Origin: a phage
DNA: 64,000 bases
Reading direction: 5' to 3' (one strand)
Sequence record: PZ154895.1
In this document: positions 14,147 through 24,140 of the stretch, piece after piece
Layout of the letters: the number at the start of each line of letters is the position of its first letter
Position numbering within the stretch: the stretch's first letter is position 1
Position numbers and translations under genes: made by a program
The notes under the pieces: model-generated
The model's input: the letters and a program-made list of their open reading frames with translations, nothing else
Database searches by the model: none
Told to the model about the DNA's origin: nothing

Positions 14147-14171
14147 TGCTTTAAGAATTATTTGTTATTAT
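14147..14171 (+). promoter_or_regulatory. middle (MotA-type) promoter for gene 31
   Basis: MotA-box-like aaTGCTTtA around 14146-14154 and tattat at 14166-14171, about 12 bp apart. Confidence 0.5.
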
Positions 14172-14201
14172 TAATTCATCTGTTAACAAAAAGGAAAAAC
14201 G

Positions 14202-14537
14202 ATGTCTGAAGTACAACAGCTACCAATTCGTGCTGTCGGTGAATATGTTATTTTAGTTTCTGAACCTGCACAAGCCGGTGATGAAGAAGTTACAGAATCA
14301 GGACTTATTATCGGTAAACGTGTCCAAGGTGAAGTTCCTGAACTGTGTGTAGTTCACTCTGTTGGTCCTGATGTTCCTGAAGGTTTCTGCGAAGTTGGTG
14401 ATTTGACTTCTCTTCCAGTTGGTCAAATTCGAAACGTTCCGCATCCTTTTGTAGCTCTGGGTCTTAAGCAGCCAAAAGAAATTAAACAAAAATTCGTTAC
14501 CTGTCACTATAAAGCTATTCCGTGTCTTTATAAGTGA
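14202..14537 (+). CDS. 31: co-chaperonin for GroEL (GroES analogue)
   Basis: 111 aa; [30 protein letters not shown]... recognised as T4 gp31. Confidence 0.93.
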
Positions 14538-14545
14538 TATAAATA
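14538..14545 (+). promoter_or_regulatory. late promoter motif TATAAATA upstream of rIII
   Basis: exact tataaata immediately after gene 31 stop. Confidence 0.45.
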
Positions 14546-14663
14546 ATAATATGAATTGAGTTTCAATTCTATGTGGTAGTCTACAACTGAGAGATCTGTC
14601 GAAAGAAGATGAAATTCAGAAGAACGTGACTACCGAGTTTTAATCTCTAACGAGAATTTTTAA

Positions 14664-14912
14664 ATGATTAAACAATTACAACACGCTCTTGAACTGCAAC
14701 GAAACGCATGGAATAATGGTCACGAAAACTATGGCGCATCTATTGATGTTGAAGCCGAAGCTCTTGAAATCCTGCGTTATTTCAAACATCTGAATCCTGC
14801 TCAAACTGCATTAGCCGCTGAGCTTCAGGAAAAAGATGAACTTAAGTATGCTAAGCCTCTGGCTTCTGCTGCACGAAAAGCAGTTCGTCACTTTGTGGTA
14901 ACACTGAAGTAA
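14664..14912 (+). CDS. rIII: lysis inhibition accessory protein rIII
   Basis: 82 aa; MIKQLQHALELQRNAWNNGHENYG... recognised as T4 rIII; synteny next to gene 31. Confidence 0.85.
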   Translation: MIKQLQHALELQRNAWNNGHENYGASIDVEAEALEILRYFKHLNPAQTALAAELQEKDELKYAKPLASAARKAVRHFVVTLK

Positions 14913-15106
14913 TTTATTGGAGAGTCACTGCCTTAGTGTGAAGTTAAAACGAGGAGCCGTCGAACTTTGTTTTACGGTGTACCTCTTGAATGTTGACGAG
15001 GTTTATGGTTATCCTGTCGGTAAATATTCAAAACCTAAGTACCCCTTGAGGGCTTTCGCAGGCAATGCCAATAAGTCCTGCATTTTCATTTAAAAGAGAA
15101 TTTATA

Positions 15107-15283
15107 ATGGCAAAACAAGCTAAAGCAAAGAAAGCAGTTGAAAAGAAAGTTGGTGATTCTAAACGCGCTGGTTACAAGCGTGGGTCGAACTCTCGTATCA
15201 ATCAAACTGTTGAGAAGATCATGCGCCGAGCACGTGCGGTTCTTCGAGATGATGCTTCTCGTTTTGGTAAGCAGAAAGCATAA
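15107..15283 (+). CDS. hypothetical small highly basic protein (58 aa)
   Basis: MAKQAKAKKAVEKK... Lys/Arg-rich; own RBS; strong terminator follows; longer ORF 15065 lacks RBS. Confidence 0.5.
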   Translation: MAKQAKAKKAVEKKVGDSKRAGYKRGSNSRINQTVEKIMRRARAVLRDDASRFGKQKA

Positions 15284-15287
15284 GTTG

Positions 15288-15316
15288 AGGACTCCTTCGG
15301 GAGTCCTTTTTTATTT
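15288..15316 (+). terminator. rho-independent terminator
   Basis: hairpin aggactccttcgggagtcct with UUCG loop followed by tttttatttt. Confidence 0.8.
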
Positions 15317-15336
15317 TCCAAAGATTGCATAAAGTT

Positions 15337-15386
15337 GTTTACAGTATAGTTCCTTTGTGATAGTATTATCTTACACAAACAAAGGA
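15337..15386 (+). promoter_or_regulatory. early-type promoter with imperfect inverted repeat spanning -10
   Basis: gtttac 15337-15342, tagtat 15361-15366; tcctttgtg / cacaaacaaagga arms. Confidence 0.45.
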
Positions 15387-15393
15387 GAATAAA

Positions 15394-15726
15394 ATGAAAA
15401 CGATTAATCTGAACGCCACAGTTAAAACTAAATGCTTCAATGGTAAATATGATGAAACTATGTGGTTCTTAATGGCAGTTGAAGGTGATATTATTGAAGT
15501 AGAAACAACAGAAGGTATGGGAACAGATTTCACCTTTACAATTCAAGTTCATAATTTCTTTACTGGTTGGATTTATGAATTGAATACAGTAATCGTTGGA
15601 AAAATTGAACAAAATGAATTGGGTGAATGGTATTATGTTACAGCTCGCCAACGTGCCGAACGCTTAATTGAGAAGATGAAAAAAGTTGGTAAACTTGACA
15701 TGCAACATTGGAAAGTAGTAAAATAA
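15394..15726 (+). CDS. hypothetical protein (110 aa)
   Basis: ORF with AAGGAG RBS. Confidence 0.5.
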   Translation: MKTINLNATVKTKCFNGKYDETMWFLMAVEGDIIEVETTEGMGTDFTFTIQVHNFFTGWIYELNTVIVGKIEQNELGEWYYVTARQRAERLIEKMKKVGKLDMQHWKVVK

Positions 15727-15728
15727 TT

Positions 15729-15768
15729 GTTTACTTTGGTACAGGATATGATATTATATACCTGTACC
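15729..15768 (+). promoter_or_regulatory. early-type promoter inside inverted repeat ggtacagg/cctgtacc
   Basis: gtttac 15729-15734, -10 tattat about 15752-15757, perfect 8-bp inverted repeat 15738-15745/15761-15768. Confidence 0.5.
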
Positions 15769-15781
15769 GCAATTAAACATC

Positions 15782-16159
15782 TTGGAGAATAAAATGAACT
15801 ACATCAACTTTGAACGTAAATATGTTTCTAATGGTATTGCAGGTTCTATTGATACTATTTGCCTTTGGAAACATCAAAATGGATCAGTATGCGAAATTGA
15901 ACAGTATATGACTCCTAACTACGTTTATATGCGATTTGAAAATGGCATCACGGTTTCAATCACGAAAGAAGGTTCTTCTTTTAAAATCGCATTAGATGAT
16001 GATTTTCGTCAACGTGATTTAGGTACTCATCCTTGCTGGAATGGCGTCAATCGTAAGCTTCTGGTTAAAACTTGGATTCGTCATATTCTGAGTAACAGAG
16101 CTAAACCTGAGCATCTTGAAGCGATCTTTGATGTAGTTCTTAACGAATTTGATATTTAA
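15782..16159 (+). CDS. hypothetical protein (125 aa)
   Basis: ORF with GGAGAAT RBS. Confidence 0.5.
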   Translation: MENKMNYINFERKYVSNGIAGSIDTICLWKHQNGSVCEIEQYMTPNYVYMRFENGITVSITKEGSSFKIALDDDFRQRDLGTHPCWNGVNRKLLVKTWIRHILSNRAKPEHLEAIFDVVLNEFDI

Positions 16160-16169
16160 AATAAAATGA

Positions 16170-16190
16170 GGGGCTTCGGCCCCTTACTGA
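16170..16190 (+). terminator. terminator-like hairpin
   Basis: ggggcttcggcccc with UUCG loop, weak T tract after. Confidence 0.5.
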
Positions 16191-16200
16191 GGAAAATACT

Positions 16201-16488
16201 ATGTTTATGACTACTTATTTTGATACCCGCAAAAATTTCTGTGAAGTGGTTTTCTCTAAGGCGCCTAAAGACCTTCCTGCTCATTTGCAGCCTACTAGTG
16301 AATCGATTAAAAACTATGTTAATGTAGTCTGCCCTTTAGAGTTCCGTACTGTAAATGGCCGCGATACTTTAGCTATCACTAAACTTAATCGTGAAATTGA
16401 CATTGACCCTTCAATTGCGCGCGAAATTAACATTTCTGATATCGGCGGCGGTAATGTTAAATCACACGGTTTTCAGATGAGATTTTAA
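16201..16488 (+). CDS. hypothetical protein (95 aa)
   Basis: ORF with GAGGAAAA RBS. Confidence 0.5.
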   Translation: MFMTTYFDTRKNFCEVVFSKAPKDLPAHLQPTSESIKNYVNVVCPLEFRTVNGRDTLAITKLNREIDIDPSIAREINISDIGGGNVKSHGFQMRF

Positions 16489-16492
16489 TAAA

Positions 16493-16708
16493 ATGTTTAA
16501 GAAATTAATCCAGAAATTACTGGGCACGGAAATGGTCGAAGTTACTTATCGTGTGACTGATGTCTCTCCGCTCACTGAAGACCATTTAGAGCCATATATT
16601 ATGACAATTAAAATGCTTAAACACGATGGCGGATTATCTATTGAAGACCGTTTACCAAGTTATGGTCATTGGGCTGATATTGAAATTATAAGTATTAAAG
16701 ATGTCTGA
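16493..16708 (+). CDS. hypothetical small protein (71 aa)
   Basis: ORF, coupled to next gene. Confidence 0.45.
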   Translation: MFKKLIQKLLGTEMVEVTYRVTDVSPLTEDHLEPYIMTIKMLKHDGGLSIEDRLPSYGHWADIEIISIKDV

Positions 16709-17159
16709 GTTAGAGATTAGAAGCAATTTTAGATGGCCATCATGTGCATTAAGTAATTTCGCCCAATGGCCTTTCGTTATGGATGGCATTCAATTTGGAG
16801 GTCTCGAAGGATTCCTCCAAGGGTGTAAGGTGAAAAATGTTGAACATCAAAGACGTATATTTGGGTTATCCGGGCTTGCCGCCCAACAAGCTGGAAGGTC
16901 TTATGCTAGAGCTCAGGACCGTGGGACCCTCTTCTGGCTTGGAGTTCCGTTTTCAAGATACTCCCCGGCGTGGAAAGAATTATACACAAATGCATATTTT
17001 GAAGCAGCGATCCAAAACAAGGGCTTTCGCGATGCATTACAAGCCTCGAAAGGAAAAGTTTTGAAGCACAGCATGGCTAGTGGTCTAACAAAAGATGATA
17101 CAATACTAACCGAAGCTGAATTTATTGATGTGTTAAACCTATTAAGAGACTCTCTATGA
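16701..17159 (+). CDS. NADAR (YbiA-like) domain protein
   Basis: 152 aa; LSNFAQWPF...DG...EGFLQGCK closely matches the YbiA/NADAR signature FSNFAAWP...DG...EHYFQAQK as I recall it. Confidence 0.65.
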   Translation: MSELEIRSNFRWPSCALSNFAQWPFVMDGIQFGGLEGFLQGCKVKNVEHQRRIFGLSGLAAQQAGRSYARAQDRGTLFWLGVPFSRYSPAWKELYTNAYFEAAIQNKGFRDALQASKGKVLKHSMASGLTKDDTILTEAEFIDVLNLLRDSL

Positions 17160-18019
17160 AGCCAACTATTTTGACTGATATTGATGGAGTATGTTTAAGC
17201 TGGCAATCAGGCCTTCCTTATTTTGCTCAGAAATATAATCTTCCGTTAGAACATATTTTAAAAATGATCCAAGATGAGAAATTTATTTCTCCAGGTAAAC
17301 TCTTTAATTGTGATGAAGAACTTGGTGTCAAGTTAATTGAAAAATACAATCGTTCAGATTTTATTCGTTACTTGTCTCCGTATAAAGATGCCCTGTGTGT
17401 AATTAACAAATTAAAAGAAGATTATAATTTTGTAGCTGTTACAGCATTGGGTGATTCTATTGACGCTCTGTTGAATCGTCAATTTAATTTGAATGCTCTT
17501 TTTCCTGGTGCCTTCTCAGAAGTAATGATGTGTGGTCATGATTCTTCAAAAGAAGAGTTATTCAAAAAGGCAAAAGAGAAATATAACGTAATTTGTTATA
17601 TTGACGATCTCGCTCACCATTGCGATCATGCGAGTGAAATATTAAATGTTCCGGTTTATTGGATGGCTCGAGGAGAGCGTGACAATATTCCAAAAACTGC
17701 GCAGCGAGTTTATACATGGAATGATGTAGAAAATAAGCTTTTTTCACCAAAGGAAAATAAAGAAAGTTTTGATAGTGAAAAAGCTATAAAAGATGTAATT
17801 GAGAAGATGGTTAAAAACGATTCTTTTCGTTGGAACACTACTTGGAGAACTCCTGGATTTAATCCGTATAATCCATATTATACACATCCATATAATCCAT
17901 ATTATACACACCCGTATCATATGAATCCATTCCATACGTGGAGTTATACCAAGCCTGGCGATGCAGGATATTTTAATAGATTTACTAGTGGTGATAATAT
18001 TTTCCAAGGAGCATTCTAA
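17156..18019 (+). CDS. HAD-superfamily phosphatase-like protein with Tyr/Pro/His-rich repeated C-terminus
   Basis: 287 aa; N-terminal DxDG motif LTDIDGV; C-terminal NPYNPYYTHPYNPYYTHPY repeat. Confidence 0.6.
   Translation: MKPTILTDIDGVCLSWQSGLPYFAQKYNLPLEHILKMIQDEKFISPGKLFNCDEELGVKLIEKYNRSDFIRYLSPYKDALCVINKLKEDYNFVAVTALGDSIDALLNRQFNLNALFPGAFSEVMMCGHDSSKEELFKKAKEKYNVICYIDDLAHHCDHASEILNVPVYWMARGERDNIPKTAQRVYTWNDVENKLFSPKENKESFDSEKAIKDVIEKMVKNDSFRWNTTWRTPGFNPYNPYYTHPYNPYYTHPYHMNPFHTWSYTKPGDAGYFNRFTSGDNIFQGAF
17861..17914 (+). repeat. intragenic tandem repeat (2 exact 20-nt copies, period 24)
   Basis: tataatccatattatacaca at 17867-17886 and 17891-17910. Confidence 0.9.
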
Positions 18020-18288
18020 TGTTTGTCGTTCACACTATTTATGAAAATGAAGGTAATACTACACGTGATTACGGTCACGTAAATCAATTTTTTAGATGCA
18101 ATCCAGAATTCCGAGCTCAAAAAGACGAACGAATTTTTAAAAAATGTGTAGAGCAAGGTTTCATTTACGTCAAGCATTGGATGCAAGGAAATAAAGTTAG
18201 AACTACATATCATAAGTCTTTGCCTGAGCTTAATGATGAATTGATTTATAATAGAGCTGTAAACCAAACCTTGAAGGATGAGCAATGA
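18019..18288 (+). CDS. hypothetical protein (89 aa)
   Basis: ATGA-coupled ORF immediately upstream of ligase. Confidence 0.5.
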   Translation: MFVVHTIYENEGNTTRDYGHVNQFFRCNPEFRAQKDERIFKKCVEQGFIYVKHWMQGNKVRTTYHKSLPELNDELIYNRAVNQTLKDEQ

Positions 18289-19748
18289 TTCTTAAAATTC
18301 TGAATGAAATAGCATCTATTAGATCAACTAAGCAGAAGCAAGCAATTCTTGAAAAGAATAAAGATAATGAATTGCTTAAACGAGTATATCGTCTGACTTA
18401 TTCTCGTGGGTTACAGTATTATATCAAGAAATGGCCTAAACCTGGTATTGCTACCCAGAGTTTTGGGATGTTGACCATTACCGATATGCTTGACTTCATT
18501 GAATTCACGTTAGCTACTCGGAAATTAACTGGCAATGCAGCAATTGAGGAATTAACTGGATATATCACTGATGGTAAAAAGGATGATGTTGAAGTTTTGC
18601 GTCGAGTGATGATGCGAGATCTTGAATGCGGTGCTTCAGTATCTATTGCAAACAAAGTTTGGCCAGGTTTAATTCCTGAACAACCTCAAATGCTCGCAAG
18701 TTCTTATGATGAAAAAGGCATTAGTAAGAATATCAAATTTCCAGCTTTTGCGCAGTTAAAAGCAGATGGAGCTCGGTGTTTTGCTGAAGTTCGAGGTGAT
18801 GAATTAGATGATGTTCGTCTTTTATCACGAGCTGGTAATGAATATCTAGGATTAGATCTTCTTAAGGAAGAATTAATCAAAATGACTGCTGAAGCCCGCC
18901 AGATTCATCCAGAAGGTGTGTTAATTGATGGCGAATTGGTATACCATGAGCAAGTTAAAAAGGAACCAGAAGGCCTAGATTTTCTTTTTGATGCTTATCC
19001 TGAAATTAGTAAAGCTAAAGAATTCGCCGAAGTAGCGGAATCTCGTACTACTTCTAATGGAATCGCCAATAAATCCTTAAAAGGAACCATTTCTGAAAAA
19101 GAAGCTCAATGTATGAAGTTTCAGGTCTGGGATTATGTCCCGTTGATAGAAATATACGGTCTTCCGGCGTTTCGTTTAAAATATGATGTACGTTTTTCTA
19201 AACTAGAACAAATGACATCAGGATATGATAAAGTAATTTTAATTGAAAACCAAGTAGTAAATAACCTAGATGAAGCTAAGGTAATTTATAAAAAATATAT
19301 TGACCAAGGTTTTGAAGGTATTATTCTCAAAAATACCGACGGATTGTGGGAAAATGCTCGTTCAAAAAATCTCTATAAATTTAAAGAAGTAATTGATGTT
19401 GATTTAAAAATTGTAGGAATTTATCCTCACCGTAAAGACCCTACTAAAGCGGGTGGATTTATTCTTGAATCAGAGTGTGGAAAAATTAAAGTAAATGCTG
19501 GTTCAGGCTTAAAAGATAAAGCCGGTGTAAAATCGCATGAACTTGACCGTACTCGCATTATGGAAAACCAAAATTATTATATTGGAAAAATTCTAGAATG
19601 TGAATGCAATGGTTGGTTAAAATCTGATGGCCGCACCGATTACGTTAAATTATTTCTTCCGATTGCGATTCGTTTACGTGAAGATAAAACTAAAGCTAAT
19701 ACATTCGAGGATGTATTTGGTGATTTTCATGAGGTAACTGGTCTATGA
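18285..19748 (+). CDS. 30: ATP-dependent DNA ligase
   Basis: 487 aa; adenylation motif KADGAR; recognised as T4 DNA ligase. Confidence 0.95.
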   Translation: MILKILNEIASIRSTKQKQAILEKNKDNELLKRVYRLTYSRGLQYYIKKWPKPGIATQSFGMLTITDMLDFIEFTLATRKLTGNAAIEELTGYITDGKKDDVEVLRRVMMRDLECGASVSIANKVWPGLIPEQPQMLASSYDEKGISKNIKFPAFAQLKADGARCFAEVRGDELDDVRLLSRAGNEYLGLDLLKEELIKMTAEARQIHPEGVLIDGELVYHEQVKKEPEGLDFLFDAYPEISKAKEFAEVAESRTTSNGIANKSLKGTISEKEAQCMKFQVWDYVPLIEIYGLPAFRLKYDVRFSKLEQMTSGYDKVILIENQVVNNLDEAKVIYKKYIDQGFEGIILKNTDGLWENARSKNLYKFKEVIDVDLKIVGIYPHRKDPTKAGGFILESECGKIKVNAGSGLKDKAGVKSHELDRTRIMENQNYYIGKILECECNGWLKSDGRTDYVKLFLPIAIRLREDKTKANTFEDVFGDFHEVTGL

Positions 19749-19933
19749 AAGCTTACTTAGAAACAATTGTCGTTGCTCAAAAAGAAGGTGGAGATGTTTC
19801 TACTTCTGTATCACAAATTATGATTGAATTTATAGATGCATATGCTTATAATAAATTCACAGAAACATTTGATGCCTACGAAAAAGGTCCAAAGTTTGAA
19901 ATATACCGTACTCTCTTACCAATAGATTATTAA
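19745..19933 (+). CDS. hypothetical small protein (62 aa)
   Basis: ATGA-coupled ORF after ligase. Confidence 0.45.
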   Translation: MKAYLETIVVAQKEGGDVSTSVSQIMIEFIDAYAYNKFTETFDAYEKGPKFEIYRTLLPIDY

Positions 19934-19957
19934 AGGCCTTCGGGCCTTTAATTTTAT
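19932..19957 (+). terminator. rho-independent terminator
   Basis: hairpin aaaggccttcgggccttt then aatttta. Confidence 0.7.
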
Positions 19958-19985
19958 AAATAGAATAAACACTAGAGAGGATATG

Positions 19986-22079
19986 ATGGAACTCATTACA
20001 GAATTATTTGACGAAGATACTACTCTTCCGATTACAAACTTAAATCCAAAGAAGAAAATACCACAAATTTTTTCAGTTCATGTTGATGACGCAATTGAAC
20101 AACCAGGCTTTCGTTTATGTACCTATACATCTGGAGGTGATACTAATCGTGATTTAAAGATGGGCGATAAAATGATGCATATTGTTCCTTTTACATTAAC
20201 TGCTAAAGGTTCAATTGCTAAATTAAAAGGTCTCGGTCCAAGCCCAATTAATTACATCAATTCAGTTTTTACTGTTGCAATGCAGACGATGCGTCAGTAT
20301 AAAATTGATGCCTGTATGCTCCGTATTCTTAAGTCTAAAACTGCTGGTCAAGCTCGTCAAATTCAACTTATTGCTGATAGACTTATCCGCAGTCGTTCAG
20401 GTGGCAGATACGTCCTTCTTAAGGAACTCTGGGATTACGATAAAAAGTATGCATATATTCTTATACATCGCAAAAATGTATCACTAGAAGACATTCCAGG
20501 AGTTCCGGAAATTAGCACCGAGCTCTTTACTAAAGTTGAATCGAAGGTCGGTGATGTTTATATCAATAAAGATACTGGAGCTCAAGTAACTAAAAATGAG
20601 GCAATTGCAGCATCTATTGCACAAGAAAATGATAAACGTTCTGACCAAGCTGTAATCGTTAAAGTTAAAATTTCCCGTAGAGCAATTGCGCAAAGTCAGT
20701 CATTGGAATCTTCTAGATTTGAAAGCGAATTATTCCAGAAGTATGAATCTACCGCAGCTAATTTCAATAAACCTGCTACCGCTCCTTTAATTCCCGAAGC
20801 AGAAGAAATGAAGCTTGGAATTAATTCATTAGCTTCTAAAACTAAAGCAGCAAAAATTATTGCCGAAGGAACTGCAGATGAACTTCACTATGACTATAAA
20901 TTCTTTTCAAAAAGTGAGGTTAATGAAGTTTCTGAAAAAATTAAAGATGTAATTCTTAATGCGATTAAAAATGAACCAACTACTTCAATAAAATGTTTAG
21001 AGAAATACGCAGCAGCTGTTAATAAATTCTTTGAAGAATACAAAGATAAATGGCTTGATAAACATAATAAAACCCGTAAAGGACAGCCAGATGAAGTCTG
21101 GGAAGAAATAACTAAAAATTCCTGGAACGCAGCAAAAACTAAATTCCTCAAACGAATGATTTATAGCTTTTCTGGAATTGGTGCAGGTCCAATGATTGAT
21201 ATTACCATTGCACGTGATGGTTCTAAATATACTCCATCGCAAAAGCGCGGTATTAGAGAGTATTGTGGATCAGGATATACTGACATCAATAATCTTCTTT
21301 TAGGCCGCTACAATCCAGAACGATATGATGTAATGAGCGAAAAAGAAATTGAATCTGCGATAAATAATTTAGATTCAGCTTTTGAAAATGGTGACCGTAT
21401 ACCAGAAGGCATTACAGTTTATCGTGCTCAAAGTATGACTGCTCCTATATACGAAGCACTAGTTAAAAATAAAGTGTTCTATTTCAGAAATTTTGTATCT
21501 ACTTCTTTAACTCCTATCATTTTTGGACGTTTTGGAATTACACATGCTGGTATCGGTCTTTTAGAACCAGAAGCTCGTAATGAATTAACAGTTGATAAAA
21601 ATGAAGAAGGAATAACTATTAATCCAAGCGAAATAAGAGCGTATAAAGAAAATCCTGAATACGTTAAAGTTCAAATAGGATGGGCAATTGATGGAGCTCA
21701 TAAAGTTAATGTTGTATATCCAGGAAGTCTCGGAATAGCAACAGAAGCTGAAGTTATTCTACCACGCGGATTGATGGTCAAAGTTAATAAAATAACTGAT
21801 GCTTCTAATAATGATGGAACAACATCTAATAATACAAAACTCATTCAAGCTGAAGTTATGACTACGGAAGAACTCACCGAATCAGTAATTTATGACGGTG
21901 ACCGTCTAATGGAAACCGGCGAAGTAGTTGCAATGACAGGTGATATTGAAATAGAAGACAGAGTTGACTTTGCATCATTTGTTTCATCAAATGTTAAACA
22001 GAAAGTAGAATCATCTCTTGGATTTATTGCGTCTTGCATAGATATTACAAACATGCCTTACAAGTTCGTTCAAGGATAA
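19986..22079 (+). CDS. alt: Alt ADP-ribosyltransferase (head-packaged)
   Basis: about 697 aa; N-terminus MELITELFDEDTTLPITNL; R / STS / E-x-E ART motifs (YRAQ, FVSTSL, EAEVILPRG). Confidence 0.9.
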   Translation: MELITELFDEDTTLPITNLNPKKKIPQIFSVHVDDAIEQPGFRLCTYTSGGDTNRDLKMGDKMMHIVPFTLTAKGSIAKLKGLGPSPINYINSVFTVAMQTMRQYKIDACMLRILKSKTAGQARQIQLIADRLIRSRSGGRYVLLKELWDYDKKYAYILIHRKNVSLEDIPGVPEISTELFTKVESKVGDVYINKDTGAQVTKNEAIAASIAQENDKRSDQAVIVKVKISRRAIAQSQSLESSRFESELFQKYESTAANFNKPATAPLIPEAEEMKLGINSLASKTKAAKIIAEGTADELHYDYKFFSKSEVNEVSEKIKDVILNAIKNEPTTSIKCLEKYAAAVNKFFEEYKDKWLDKHNKTRKGQPDEVWEEITKNSWNAAKTKFLKRMIYSFSGIGAGPMIDITIARDGSKYTPSQKRGIREYCGSGYTDINNLLLGRYNPERYDVMSEKEIESAINNLDSAFENGDRIPEGITVYRAQSMTAPIYEALVKNKVFYFRNFVSTSLTPIIFGRFGITHAGIGLLEPEARNELTVDKNEEGITINPSEIRAYKENPEYVKVQIGWAIDGAHKVNVVYPGSLGIATEAEVILPRGLMVKVNKITDASNNDGTTSNNTKLIQAEVMTTEELTESVIYDGDRLMETGEVVAMTGDIEIEDRVDFASFVSSNVKQKVESSLGFIASCIDITNMPYKFVQG

Positions 22080-22082
22080 ATC

Positions 22083-24140
22083 ATGGAACTTATTACAGAA
22101 TTATTTGACGGCGCTTCGGCGCCGGTTGTTAACTTAAATCCTAAGCATAAAATACCTCAAATTTTTGCTATTCAAGCTGGTGAAGAAAGTGTGCTTCCTG
22201 GATTTAGATTTTGTACATACACCTCTGGCGGTGATACAAATAAAAACGTTAAGCCAGGCGATAAAATGATGCATATCGTAATGATAGGTGTCAATGAGAA
22301 ACTATCATTAGTTAAACTTAAAAGCTTAGGTGGAAATCCAATTGGTGTCATTAATGCGGTTTTTGATACTGCTCTTCAAACAATGAAACAGTATAAAATT
22401 GACGCATGCCTATTCCGCGTACTAAAAAGTAAAACAAATGGCGCTGCTCGTCAAATTCAAGTTATTGCTGACCGTTTAGTACGTACTAAAGGAGCAGGTC
22501 GATATGTTCTTTTAAAGGAAATCTGGGACTATGATAAAAAGTATGCATATATTATGGTTTACCGTAAAAATGCCAATTTAGAAGACATTCCAGGTGTACC
22601 TCCTATTTCAACTGAGTTATTCACAAAAGTTGAATCAAAGGTTGGTGATGTTTATGTAGACGTTAAAACAGGTAATGCTGTTCCTAAAGCTGTTGCTGTT
22701 GCTGCTTCTATTGCTTTAGAAAATGATAAGCGTACAGATCAAGCTGTTATTCAGAAAACTAAAATTAGTCGTCGATTAGCAGCACAAGCTCAATATTCTA
22801 CTGTCGATGCTTCACTTCAGGGCGATAGCTTCGCTGCTAAGAAATATCAAGAGTTTGAATCTAAAGTTCCGGTATATAAAGCAGAAGGACCAATGAACTC
22901 TGGCGTTATTCAGATTGGTTCAAACTTCAGCAAAGGAGCTATCGGTGGTATGAGAAGTGCTTCTCGTTTTAAATCTAACGATTATGAACTAGAAAGCTTC
23001 CGAAATCATATTGCATTGGCCCATGCACGTTTACGTGATCCATCTATTAAATTACAGAGCGATATAACATATCAAGGTTCTCAGGAATATTTAAAGAATA
23101 AAGAATTCTTTGATTATAAAACCGATAAAATTTTGAGCGATCTTGCTGACATTAATATTTCTAATAGCTTTGATGTTATTAAGAAAATTGTCAATGATTT
23201 AGTTAAAGGTTCTAAAGCCACGCCAGATGAAAAGGTAGCTATTATTCAATTTGTCATGAATGGCATTTATAAATTGATTAATGAGTCTGCTTCTCAAGCG
23301 TATGAATATGCAAGTACTGAAGTACCCCCAAAAGGATTAACTCAGGCTGAGTCCGATGTAATTGAAGATTATTGTGCAGATTCATATGTTGAAATGAACT
23401 CGTTCCTCTTGGGTAAACCAGATTCTACTCGTGAAGAATACATGGAACGAGCTATTAAACACATCGAGACGCTGGATTCTGCATTCGCCAAAGGATCAGT
23501 TCTTCCTCCAGGAACTACGCTTTATCGTGGACAAGAAGTTACTTTTAAAACTTTACGCCATAATATTGAAAATAAAATGTTCTATTTCAAGAACTTCGTA
23601 TCAACATCGCTTAAACCAAATATCTTCGGTGAGTATGGTAAAAACTATATGGCTTTAGATGATTCCAGTGCAGTATTTTCTGGTGAAGGAGAAGGTTCAG
23701 TTGATGCTGAAGATTTAATGCATATGGGTAGTCACTCTGCTTATGCGAATGAAGATGCTGAAACTAGCGTGGGTATGGTAATTAAAGGAGCTGAGCGAAT
23801 CAAAGTTATCGTTCCAGGACATTTATCAGGATTTCCATCAGAAGCTGAAGTTATTTTACCGCGTGGAATTTTGCTGAAGATTAATAAAGTGAGTACGTAC
23901 ATGATGAAAGAAACTGCTTATAATAAGTATCTAATCGAAGGCACAATCGTTCCTCCTTCTGAACAATTAGAAGAATCGGTATATGATGGCGACCATCTAA
24001 TGGAAACTGGTGAAGTTCGTCCAATGGCTGGATTTAATCAATTCCTTGTAGAAGAATCAAAAGAAGAGGAAAACGAAGTTTCTCAAATCTTGGCTTCTTT
24101 GGTTAACATCAACGGAATGTCTAAAAAGTTCAAGATGTAG
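22083..24140 (+). CDS. Alt-like ADP-ribosyltransferase paralog
   Basis: 685 aa; same N-terminal propeptide MELITELFD and same R / STS / E-x-E motifs; diverged central region. Confidence 0.85.
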   Translation: MELITELFDGASAPVVNLNPKHKIPQIFAIQAGEESVLPGFRFCTYTSGGDTNKNVKPGDKMMHIVMIGVNEKLSLVKLKSLGGNPIGVINAVFDTALQTMKQYKIDACLFRVLKSKTNGAARQIQVIADRLVRTKGAGRYVLLKEIWDYDKKYAYIMVYRKNANLEDIPGVPPISTELFTKVESKVGDVYVDVKTGNAVPKAVAVAASIALENDKRTDQAVIQKTKISRRLAAQAQYSTVDASLQGDSFAAKKYQEFESKVPVYKAEGPMNSGVIQIGSNFSKGAIGGMRSASRFKSNDYELESFRNHIALAHARLRDPSIKLQSDITYQGSQEYLKNKEFFDYKTDKILSDLADINISNSFDVIKKIVNDLVKGSKATPDEKVAIIQFVMNGIYKLINESASQAYEYASTEVPPKGLTQAESDVIEDYCADSYVEMNSFLLGKPDSTREEYMERAIKHIETLDSAFAKGSVLPPGTTLYRGQEVTFKTLRHNIENKMFYFKNFVSTSLKPNIFGEYGKNYMALDDSSAVFSGEGEGSVDAEDLMHMGSHSAYANEDAETSVGMVIKGAERIKVIVPGHLSGFPSEAEVILPRGILLKINKVSTYMMKETAYNKYLIEGTIVPPSEQLEESVYDGDHLMETGEVRPMAGFNQFLVEESKEEENEVSQILASLVNINGMSKKFKM

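Follow-up and report, generated by a model that had tools for sequence, protein, structure and literature searches.

Gene content of the locus

The DNA analysed here (hereafter the window) is a 64,000-nucleotide stretch of a phage genome (sequence record PZ154895.1). It is AT-rich (GC ~0.35) and belongs to a Tequatrovirus: the region 16400–18300 shows 97.7% DNA identity to Shigella phage SH-1 and matches 686 T4-type phage records. On the + strand, the window carries two open reading frames (ORFs), at 16701–17159 and 17156–18019, that are T4 genes 30.3 and 30.2 and lie upstream of gene 30.1, the DNA ligase gene and alt. Gene 30.3, also known as adfN, codes for a full-length protein of 152 amino acids (aa), a predicted DNA ADP-ribosylglycohydrolase of the NADAR superfamily (PF08010 Phage_30_3, E=6.5e-70). 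Gene 30.2 codes for a 287-aa protein (PHROG 420, E=3.3e-89) that combines a putative HAD-superfamily phosphatase domain, including a helical C1 cap (residues 1–200), with a disordered C-terminal tail. Both ORFs had been picked out by an earlier reading of the letters alone (the sequence-only reading), which took them for a NADAR-like and a HAD-like protein. The motifs on which it relied are present in both ORFs and are real rather than chance matches, as they contain columns that are invariant across 31 homologues of each protein and, for gp30.2, across 125 relatives. The stop codon of 30.3 overlaps the start codon of 30.2 in the sequence ATGA (17156–17159, +), the same overlap as in T4, and the two genes are probably translationally coupled.

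Gene 30.3 and the NADAR superfamily

The gp30.3 protein is identical to T4 gp30.3 at 150 of 152 residues, has the same length and occupies the same map position. The only substitutions are Q49H and I125M, the latter to the Met that is consensus in the family. In hmmscan searches its sole Pfam match is PF08010, which covers it over 138 of 138 model positions; the NADAR model PF08719, which the sequence-only reading had named as the model to look for, was not matched at E≤1. PF08010 is the phage branch of the NADAR superfamily, because one homologue (P0183) matches both models and several others have been named YbiA/DUF1768 by JGI.

The N-terminal NADAR signature, SNFAQWP...DG...EGFLQGCK (16752–16829, +), is made up of invariant or near-invariant columns and aligns with FSNFAAWPIKVDG...SEHYFQAQK of Escherichia coli YbiA. 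It comprises SNFAQWP at residues 18–24 (16752–16772), DG at residues 28–29 and EGFLQGCK at residues 36–43 (16806–16829), the last of which begins and ends with the catalytic residues E36 (codon 16806–16808, +) and K43 (codon 16827–16829, +). Among the 31 gp30.3 homologues, which extend down to 34% identity, no substitution is seen at S18, N19, F20, G29, E36, G37, F38, Q40 or H123, and K43 is kept in at least 90%. H123 (codon 17067–17069, +), placed at a predicted strand of residues 120–122/123, is the last-strand His that marks the phage (gp30.3) subfamily of NADARs.

Single-sequence phmmer searches of the PDB gave only marginal matches for both gp30.3 and gp30.2. The gp30.3 family profile matched YbiA (E=1.4e-3) over the SNF...E..FQ..K segment. 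The AlphaFold2 model of gp30.3 has a mean predicted local distance difference test score (pLDDT) of 94.3 and a predicted TM-score (pTM) of 0.89, and ends in a C-terminal helix (residues 138–151) that is missing from the RB69 allele. When this model was compared with the PDB by Foldseek, the only significant matches were the three solved NADAR structures, namely YbiA (2b3w, E=2.4e-5, TM-score 0.68), Phytophthora PnNADAR with ADP-ribose (8bau) and the Geobacter lovleyi NADAR (8bat). gp30.3 is an enzyme of the NADAR superfamily with the YbiA fold; on this point the family profile, the fold and the conserved E36, K43 and H123 bear out what had been read from the letters.

AdfN activity against DarTG1

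T4 gene 30.3 has been renamed adfN, for anti-DarT factor NADAR, by Johannesman et al. (Nat Commun 2025, PMC11825919). In that study, T4 and T2 with an adfN deletion failed to plaque on DarTG1 hosts, a phenotype that was specific to host DarTG1, and ectopic AdfN rescued RB69, in which a frameshift deprives the native allele of its final 15 residues. T4 AdfN was impaired by E36A and by K43A, the purified protein stripped ADP-ribose from DarT1-modified DNA while working alone in vitro, and AdfN had no effect on the thymidine-modifying DarTG2 (PMC11825919). Another study (Toxins 2024, PMC11125620) reported guanosine-ADP-ribose hydrolase activity in vitro for all tested NADARs, including the T4 protein, with no reversal of thymidine-linked ADP-ribose, and defined the phage gp30.3 proteins as a NADAR branch with a last-strand histidine. 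AdfN is required and also sufficient against DarTG1 (PMC11825919, PMC11125620). The Methods of the latter paper (PMC11125620) give the T4 NADAR construct as 'gp30.3; residues 1-208'; T4 gp30.3 and the window protein are each 152 aa long.

With 99% identity to the T4 protein, the allele in the window can be predicted with high confidence to have AdfN function, since it is not truncated and retains the C-terminal helix as well as E36, K43 and H123, all of which it shares with T4 AdfN. Neither Q49H nor I125M is expected to make it functionally different from T4 AdfN. During infection of a DarTG1 host, the host toxin DarT1 would attach ADP-ribose to guanine in phage DNA and block replication, and AdfN, acting as a small N-glycosidase of the NADAR fold, would hydrolyse the resulting linkage. 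ADP-ribose would be released and the DNA restored, allowing the phage to grow.

The DarG1/DarT1-associated NADAR antitoxins (BC4488 family; 8bat) and YbiA (2b3w) have the YbiA fold and the SNF...E..FQ..K motif in common with gp30.3. The three types differ in the catalytic residue of the last strand, which is His in gp30.3, Asp in the DarG1 type and Glu in YbiA. In addition, gp30.3 has no counterpart of the N-terminal extension found in DarG1, is not linked to a toxin and so stands as an orphan, does not detoxify DarT1 in uninfected cells, as seen with T4 AdfN, and falls into PF08010 rather than PF08719. The biology of these NADARs has already been published, in that phages carry orphan antitoxin-like enzymes that undo the DNA ADP-ribosylation made by DarTG1, and the window adds one further intact adfN allele.

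Truncated or fused 30.3 ORFs, 86–126 aa in length and some of them joined to other Pfam families, are found in many T4-like phages. Examples of disrupted 30.3 include locus L012 (5636–6001) and proteins P0107, P0113, P0117 and P0148. The neighbouring 30.2 stays intact. It seems that adfN is often disrupted in nature, beyond the frameshift of RB69.

Gene 30.2 and the HAD superfamily

An exhaustive search with a gp30.2 profile yielded 1480 representatives at E≤1e-3, and from these we took 125 relatives reaching down to ~20% identity. All four HAD motifs can be located in gp30.2. Motif I, D8-I-D10-G-V12 (17177–17191, +), lies within LTDIDGV (residues 6–12) and supplies the putative nucleophile D8 and, two residues further on, the putative general acid/base D10; an Asp at this +2 position is typical of phosphatases. 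Motif II is T96 (17441–17443, +), at the end of the core strand 91–96, which is conserved in at least 90% of the 31 homologues and replaced by Ser in one of them. Motif III is K132 (17549–17551, +), and motif IV is the pair D150-D151 (17603–17608, +), which would bind Mg2+ and lies where strand 145–150 ends. Six of these positions or their neighbours (D8, D10, G11, K132, D150 and D151) are invariant among the 31 homologues. Across the 125 relatives, D8, D10, R108 and K132 remain invariant, D151 is kept in at least 90%, and W16 and N111 are near-invariant.

The AlphaFold model of gp30.2 has pLDDT >90 up to residue 190 and has a Rossmann-like HAD core with a helical insertion of ~60 residues (16–72) immediately after strand 1; in the model this insertion is a C1 cap. 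Foldseek returned 113 PDB matches for the model at E≤1e-3, and all 50 of those listed have the HAD fold. Among the matches listed, the cytosolic and mitochondrial 5'(3')-deoxyribonucleotidases have the lowest root-mean-square deviation and the highest target TM-scores. Together, the conservation of all four motifs and the modelled fold agree with the earlier call of a HAD-type phosphatase and make a solid case for gp30.2 as a HAD phosphomonoesterase with an intact catalytic site. Such an enzyme would be Mg2+-dependent, with Asp8 as the nucleophile that forms an aspartyl-phosphate and Asp10 as the general acid/base, while Thr96 and Lys132 would bind the phosphate, Asp150 and Asp151 would bind Mg2+ and the helical C1 cap would close over the active site. 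No literature on gp30.2 was found, and a broader search on phage deoxyribonucleotidases and counter-defence gave nothing relevant. This ordinary-looking HAD phosphatase occurs in more than 1400 sequenced phages and is kept by nearly all T4-like phages.

The last ~85 residues of gp30.2 are predicted to be disordered (pLDDT <50) and are rich in Pro, Tyr and Asn. They are encoded in part by a 24-bp tandem repeat (17862–17917, +; 2.3 copies, 90% matches, Tandem Repeats Finder score 98) that duplicates NPYYTHPY. The repeat amounts to a 10-aa insertion relative to T4 gp30.2, in which the duplication is absent; 41 phage records have a gp30.2 that is at least 99% identical to the window copy. Many homologues have a variable disordered linker followed by a terminal G-x-EYL-x-NR/Q-PT-A/S peptide (columns 300–407 of alignment A1), whereas roughly one third of them, some 200–220 aa long, have no tail at all. 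The corresponding peptide of the window protein (~17900–18016) has diverged to AGYFNRFTSGDNIFQGAF. The terminal peptide, which is semi-conserved among homologues, may be a docking motif.

Predicted substrate of gp30.2

A narrow gp30.2 profile (A1) compared with the PDB retrieved 2jao (E=0.028), and a broad one (A3) retrieved 3bwv over the full length (E=1.4e-7), followed by further nucleotide phosphatases, namely Sdt1/SSM1, a xanthosine monophosphate (XMP) phosphatase and mdN. PF06941, the NT5C model, is matched at E≤1e-3 by 35 of the 125 remote relatives, with P0340 and P0346 above its gathering cut-off; gp30.2 itself falls below that cut-off, having no Pfam match at E≤1. Identity between gp30.2 and the NT5C proteins (PF06941; 3bwv, 2jao, 2i7d and 1q92) is ~17–21%, and gp30.2 differs from them in the family-specific residues R108 (invariant), W16 and N111 (both near-invariant) and in its disordered, repeat-bearing tail of ~85 aa. 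By these sequence comparisons, the gp30.2 family is a sister group of the NT5C 5'(3')-deoxyribonucleotidases rather than a member of that group.

Because the nearest relatives of gp30.2 are 5'(3')-(deoxy)nucleotidases, its most likely, though unproven, substrate is a nucleoside monophosphate. In the HAD superfamily a cap goes with small-molecule substrates and its absence, as in Pnkp, with macromolecular ones, so the helical C1 cap likewise points to a small-molecule substrate. Phage T5 provides an example of a phosphatase that acts on deoxynucleoside monophosphates (dNMPs) and has a counter-defence role, the deoxynucleoside-5'-monophosphatase Dmp, which acts against Kongming (bioRxiv 10.1101/2024.12.20.629578). 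We rejected Dmp as a homologue of gp30.2 (hhalign probability 1.9%; Dmp has no Pfam match), and the analogy between the two is functional speculation only.

Several proteins combine a gp30.2-family HAD domain with extra regions that have no Pfam match (P0257, 591 aa; P0245, 365 aa; P0328; P0206). The N-terminal part of P0257 has a GDLDI motif reminiscent of nucleotidyltransferases, and the C-terminal part of P0245 has a GRHR motif reminiscent of ParB-like domains.

Relationship between 30.3 and 30.2

The neighbourhoods of the two genes were compared in two sets of viral loci, 79 centred on relatives of gp30.2 and 80 on relatives of gp30.3, each set being searched with the profile of the other family. 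No NADAR gene was found within 6 kb in 42 of the 79 gp30.2 loci, and in at least 8 of these genomes the NADAR gene lies ~55–70 kb away (contig coordinates). Conversely, a gp30.2 relative was present within 6 kb in 19 of the 80 NADAR loci, or in 22 with a broader profile, leaving 58 with none. A fusion of the HAD and NADAR domains, which would be a Rosetta-stone link, was not seen among the 346 collected proteins, and in some phages a truncated 30.3 lies beside an intact 30.2. The adjacency of 30.3 and 30.2 is therefore a lineage-limited conserved synteny in part of the family and not a fixed pair. The two lie side by side because the T4 gene order is conserved in the stretch between rIII and lig, and nothing shows that they work jointly with each other or with Alt. 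The joint NADAR–HAD processing module proposed in the sequence-only reading does not fit these partial associations (a partner nearby in only 37 of 79 and 22 of 80 loci), nor the activity of AdfN on its own in vitro. Taken as a whole, a reading in which 30.3 is AdfN, 30.2 is a HAD phosphomonoesterase and likely a nucleotidase, and the two adjoin through T4 gene order is very probably correct.

Some observations weigh against this reading. No Pfam (E≤1) or NCBIfam model matched gp30.2 itself, so that the Pfam search suggested for the second protein came back empty and its HAD character had to be established through family profiles and structure. In 37 of the 79 gp30.2 loci, spread over several T4-like genera, a NADAR gene does lie 0–1.7 kb upstream on the same strand, which would be compatible with some functional link. 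Such a link might also be read from locus L113 (4736–6456) of an uncultivated ~166-kb phage, where a distant 190-aa HAD of the gp30.2 family (motif LTDIDGC) is encoded two genes upstream of a NADAR of the gp30.3 type, in an order (HAD-x-x-NADAR) that is the reverse of that in T4. Finally, in both published studies T4 AdfN did not rescue uninfected E. coli from DarT1 toxicity, and it rescued non-T-even phages only in part (PMC11825919, PMC11125620).

On the basis of this behaviour, a further T-even factor has been proposed for the full activity of AdfN (PMC11825919, PMC11125620). These results imply that something else in T-even infection contributes, and the candidates include a neighbouring gene such as 30.2. 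We think it rather unlikely that gp30.2 is either this factor or a separate counter-defence nucleotide phosphatase that would destroy a precursor or signal derived from nucleotides, in the way that T5 Dmp counters Kongming. The first of these possibilities, a functional pair in which gp30.2 would bind, stabilize or localize AdfN, or remove an inhibitory phosphorylated product or intermediate, and so allow its full activity in vivo, is in itself unlikely. The ATGA overlap, the recurrence of an upstream NADAR gene in several T4-like lineages and the gene arrangement in L113 are all in its favour. So is the occurrence of gp30.2 in the two phages in which AdfN is fully effective, T4 and RB69, and not in T5, where rescue is partial (PMC11825919); a search of the whole unique T5 genome found no member of the gp30.2 family even at E≤10. 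However, presence in T-even phages and absence from T5 is a pattern expected of many T-even genes and makes a weak filter. The nearly identical host distributions of the two families in searches of the phage protein collection (1440 and 1511 records) also speak for the pair, but they fit two widely conserved T4-like genes and are confounded by the common descent of Straboviridae. The pair is further contradicted by the many loci of either gene that lack the other nearby, by the genomes in which the two lie tens of kilobases apart, by the lack of fusions among the collected proteins, by the retention of an intact 30.2 where 30.3 is truncated and by the activity of purified AdfN alone (PMC11825919), and it comes without a biochemical rationale. 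If gp30.2 did affect resistance to DarTG1, it could be the T-even factor of AdfN; otherwise, it may be a new phage nucleotide phosphatase.

An alternative is that 30.2 encodes a DNA or RNA 3'-phosphatase that acts on nucleic-acid ends, as the HAD domain in T4 polynucleotide kinase does, in the service of the DNA ligase encoded nearby. We consider this quite improbable, given that gp30.2 has the ~60-residue helical cap after motif I that macromolecule-specific members such as Pnkp lack, that sequence and fold searches alike rank nucleotidases higher and that T4 already encodes Pnkp. A nucleotidase acting on small molecules remains the preferred assignment for gp30.2.

Relationship to the Alt ADP-ribosyltransferases

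The two ADP-ribosyltransferase genes that had been noted about 2 kb downstream are indeed there, both matching PF03496. The first (19983–22079, +; E=1.5e-37) is alt, whose product is 70% identical to T4 Alt in pairwise comparison, and the second (22083–24140, +; E=3e-20) encodes a full-length Alt paralogue that is 41% identical to T4 Alt in the same kind of comparison. Alt modifies arginine in proteins, and this target speaks against a role of AdfN in undoing its action. A single ADP-ribose module made up of the NADAR, the HAD protein and the two Alt enzymes, with AdfN editing or reversing the ADP-ribosylation made by the phage's own Alt, is scarcely credible and was rejected on published substrate specificity and the variable location of the NADAR gene. 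The genes do share a strand and are separated by ~2 kb, but guanosine-linked ADP-ribose on DNA is what the NADARs tested, T4's among them, hydrolyse (PMC11125620), the adfN deletion phenotype is confined to host DarTG1 (PMC11825919), the NADAR gene is ~55–70 kb from the 30.2–lig region in many T4-like genomes, and the order 30.3-30.2-30.1-lig-alt is the plain T4 map. The suggested reversal of ADP-ribosylation holds in kind, having been published for T4 AdfN on DNA (PMC11825919, PMC11125620), but no link to Alt was found. The proximity of NADAR and ADP-ribosyltransferase genes in T4-like phages has been remarked on earlier (PMC9503650).

Neighbouring genes and other features

All ORFs surrounding 30.3 and 30.2 are on the + strand and represent T4 families in T4 order, and the annotated T4 and RB69 records have the same gene order as the window. 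Upstream lie gene 30.7 (15782–16159, +; PF06919), gene 30.6 (16201–16488, +), assigned by position relative to T4 and RB69, and gene 30.4 (16493–16708, +; PHROG 2042). T4 gene 30.5 is absent from the window, in which 30.6 is directly followed by 30.4, as in RB69. Downstream, 30.2 is followed by gene 30.1 (18019–18288, +; DUF3045, PF11243, E=5.6e-63), gene 30 for the ATP-dependent DNA ligase (18285–19748, +; PF01068, E=4.3e-32) and alt.1 (19745–19933, +), which was likewise assigned by position relative to T4 and RB69.

A scan of 14171–22808 gave no match to a MotA-box middle promoter before 30.3 or 30.2, and scans for sigma-70 promoters and terminators gave results at chance level. Within 30.3, in another frame, there is an ORF of 75 aa with an ATG start (16837–17064, +), equal in length to the 228-nucleotide internal ORF 30.3' of T4.

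The second Alt protein (685 aa), encoded directly after alt, keeps motifs of the R...STS...ExE type, in the form of YRGQE, FVSTSL and EAEVILP. Of this Alt duplication, nothing but the remnants alt.-1 and alt.-2 is left in T4. A full second Alt is common, with at least 80% of it covered in 402 phage records.

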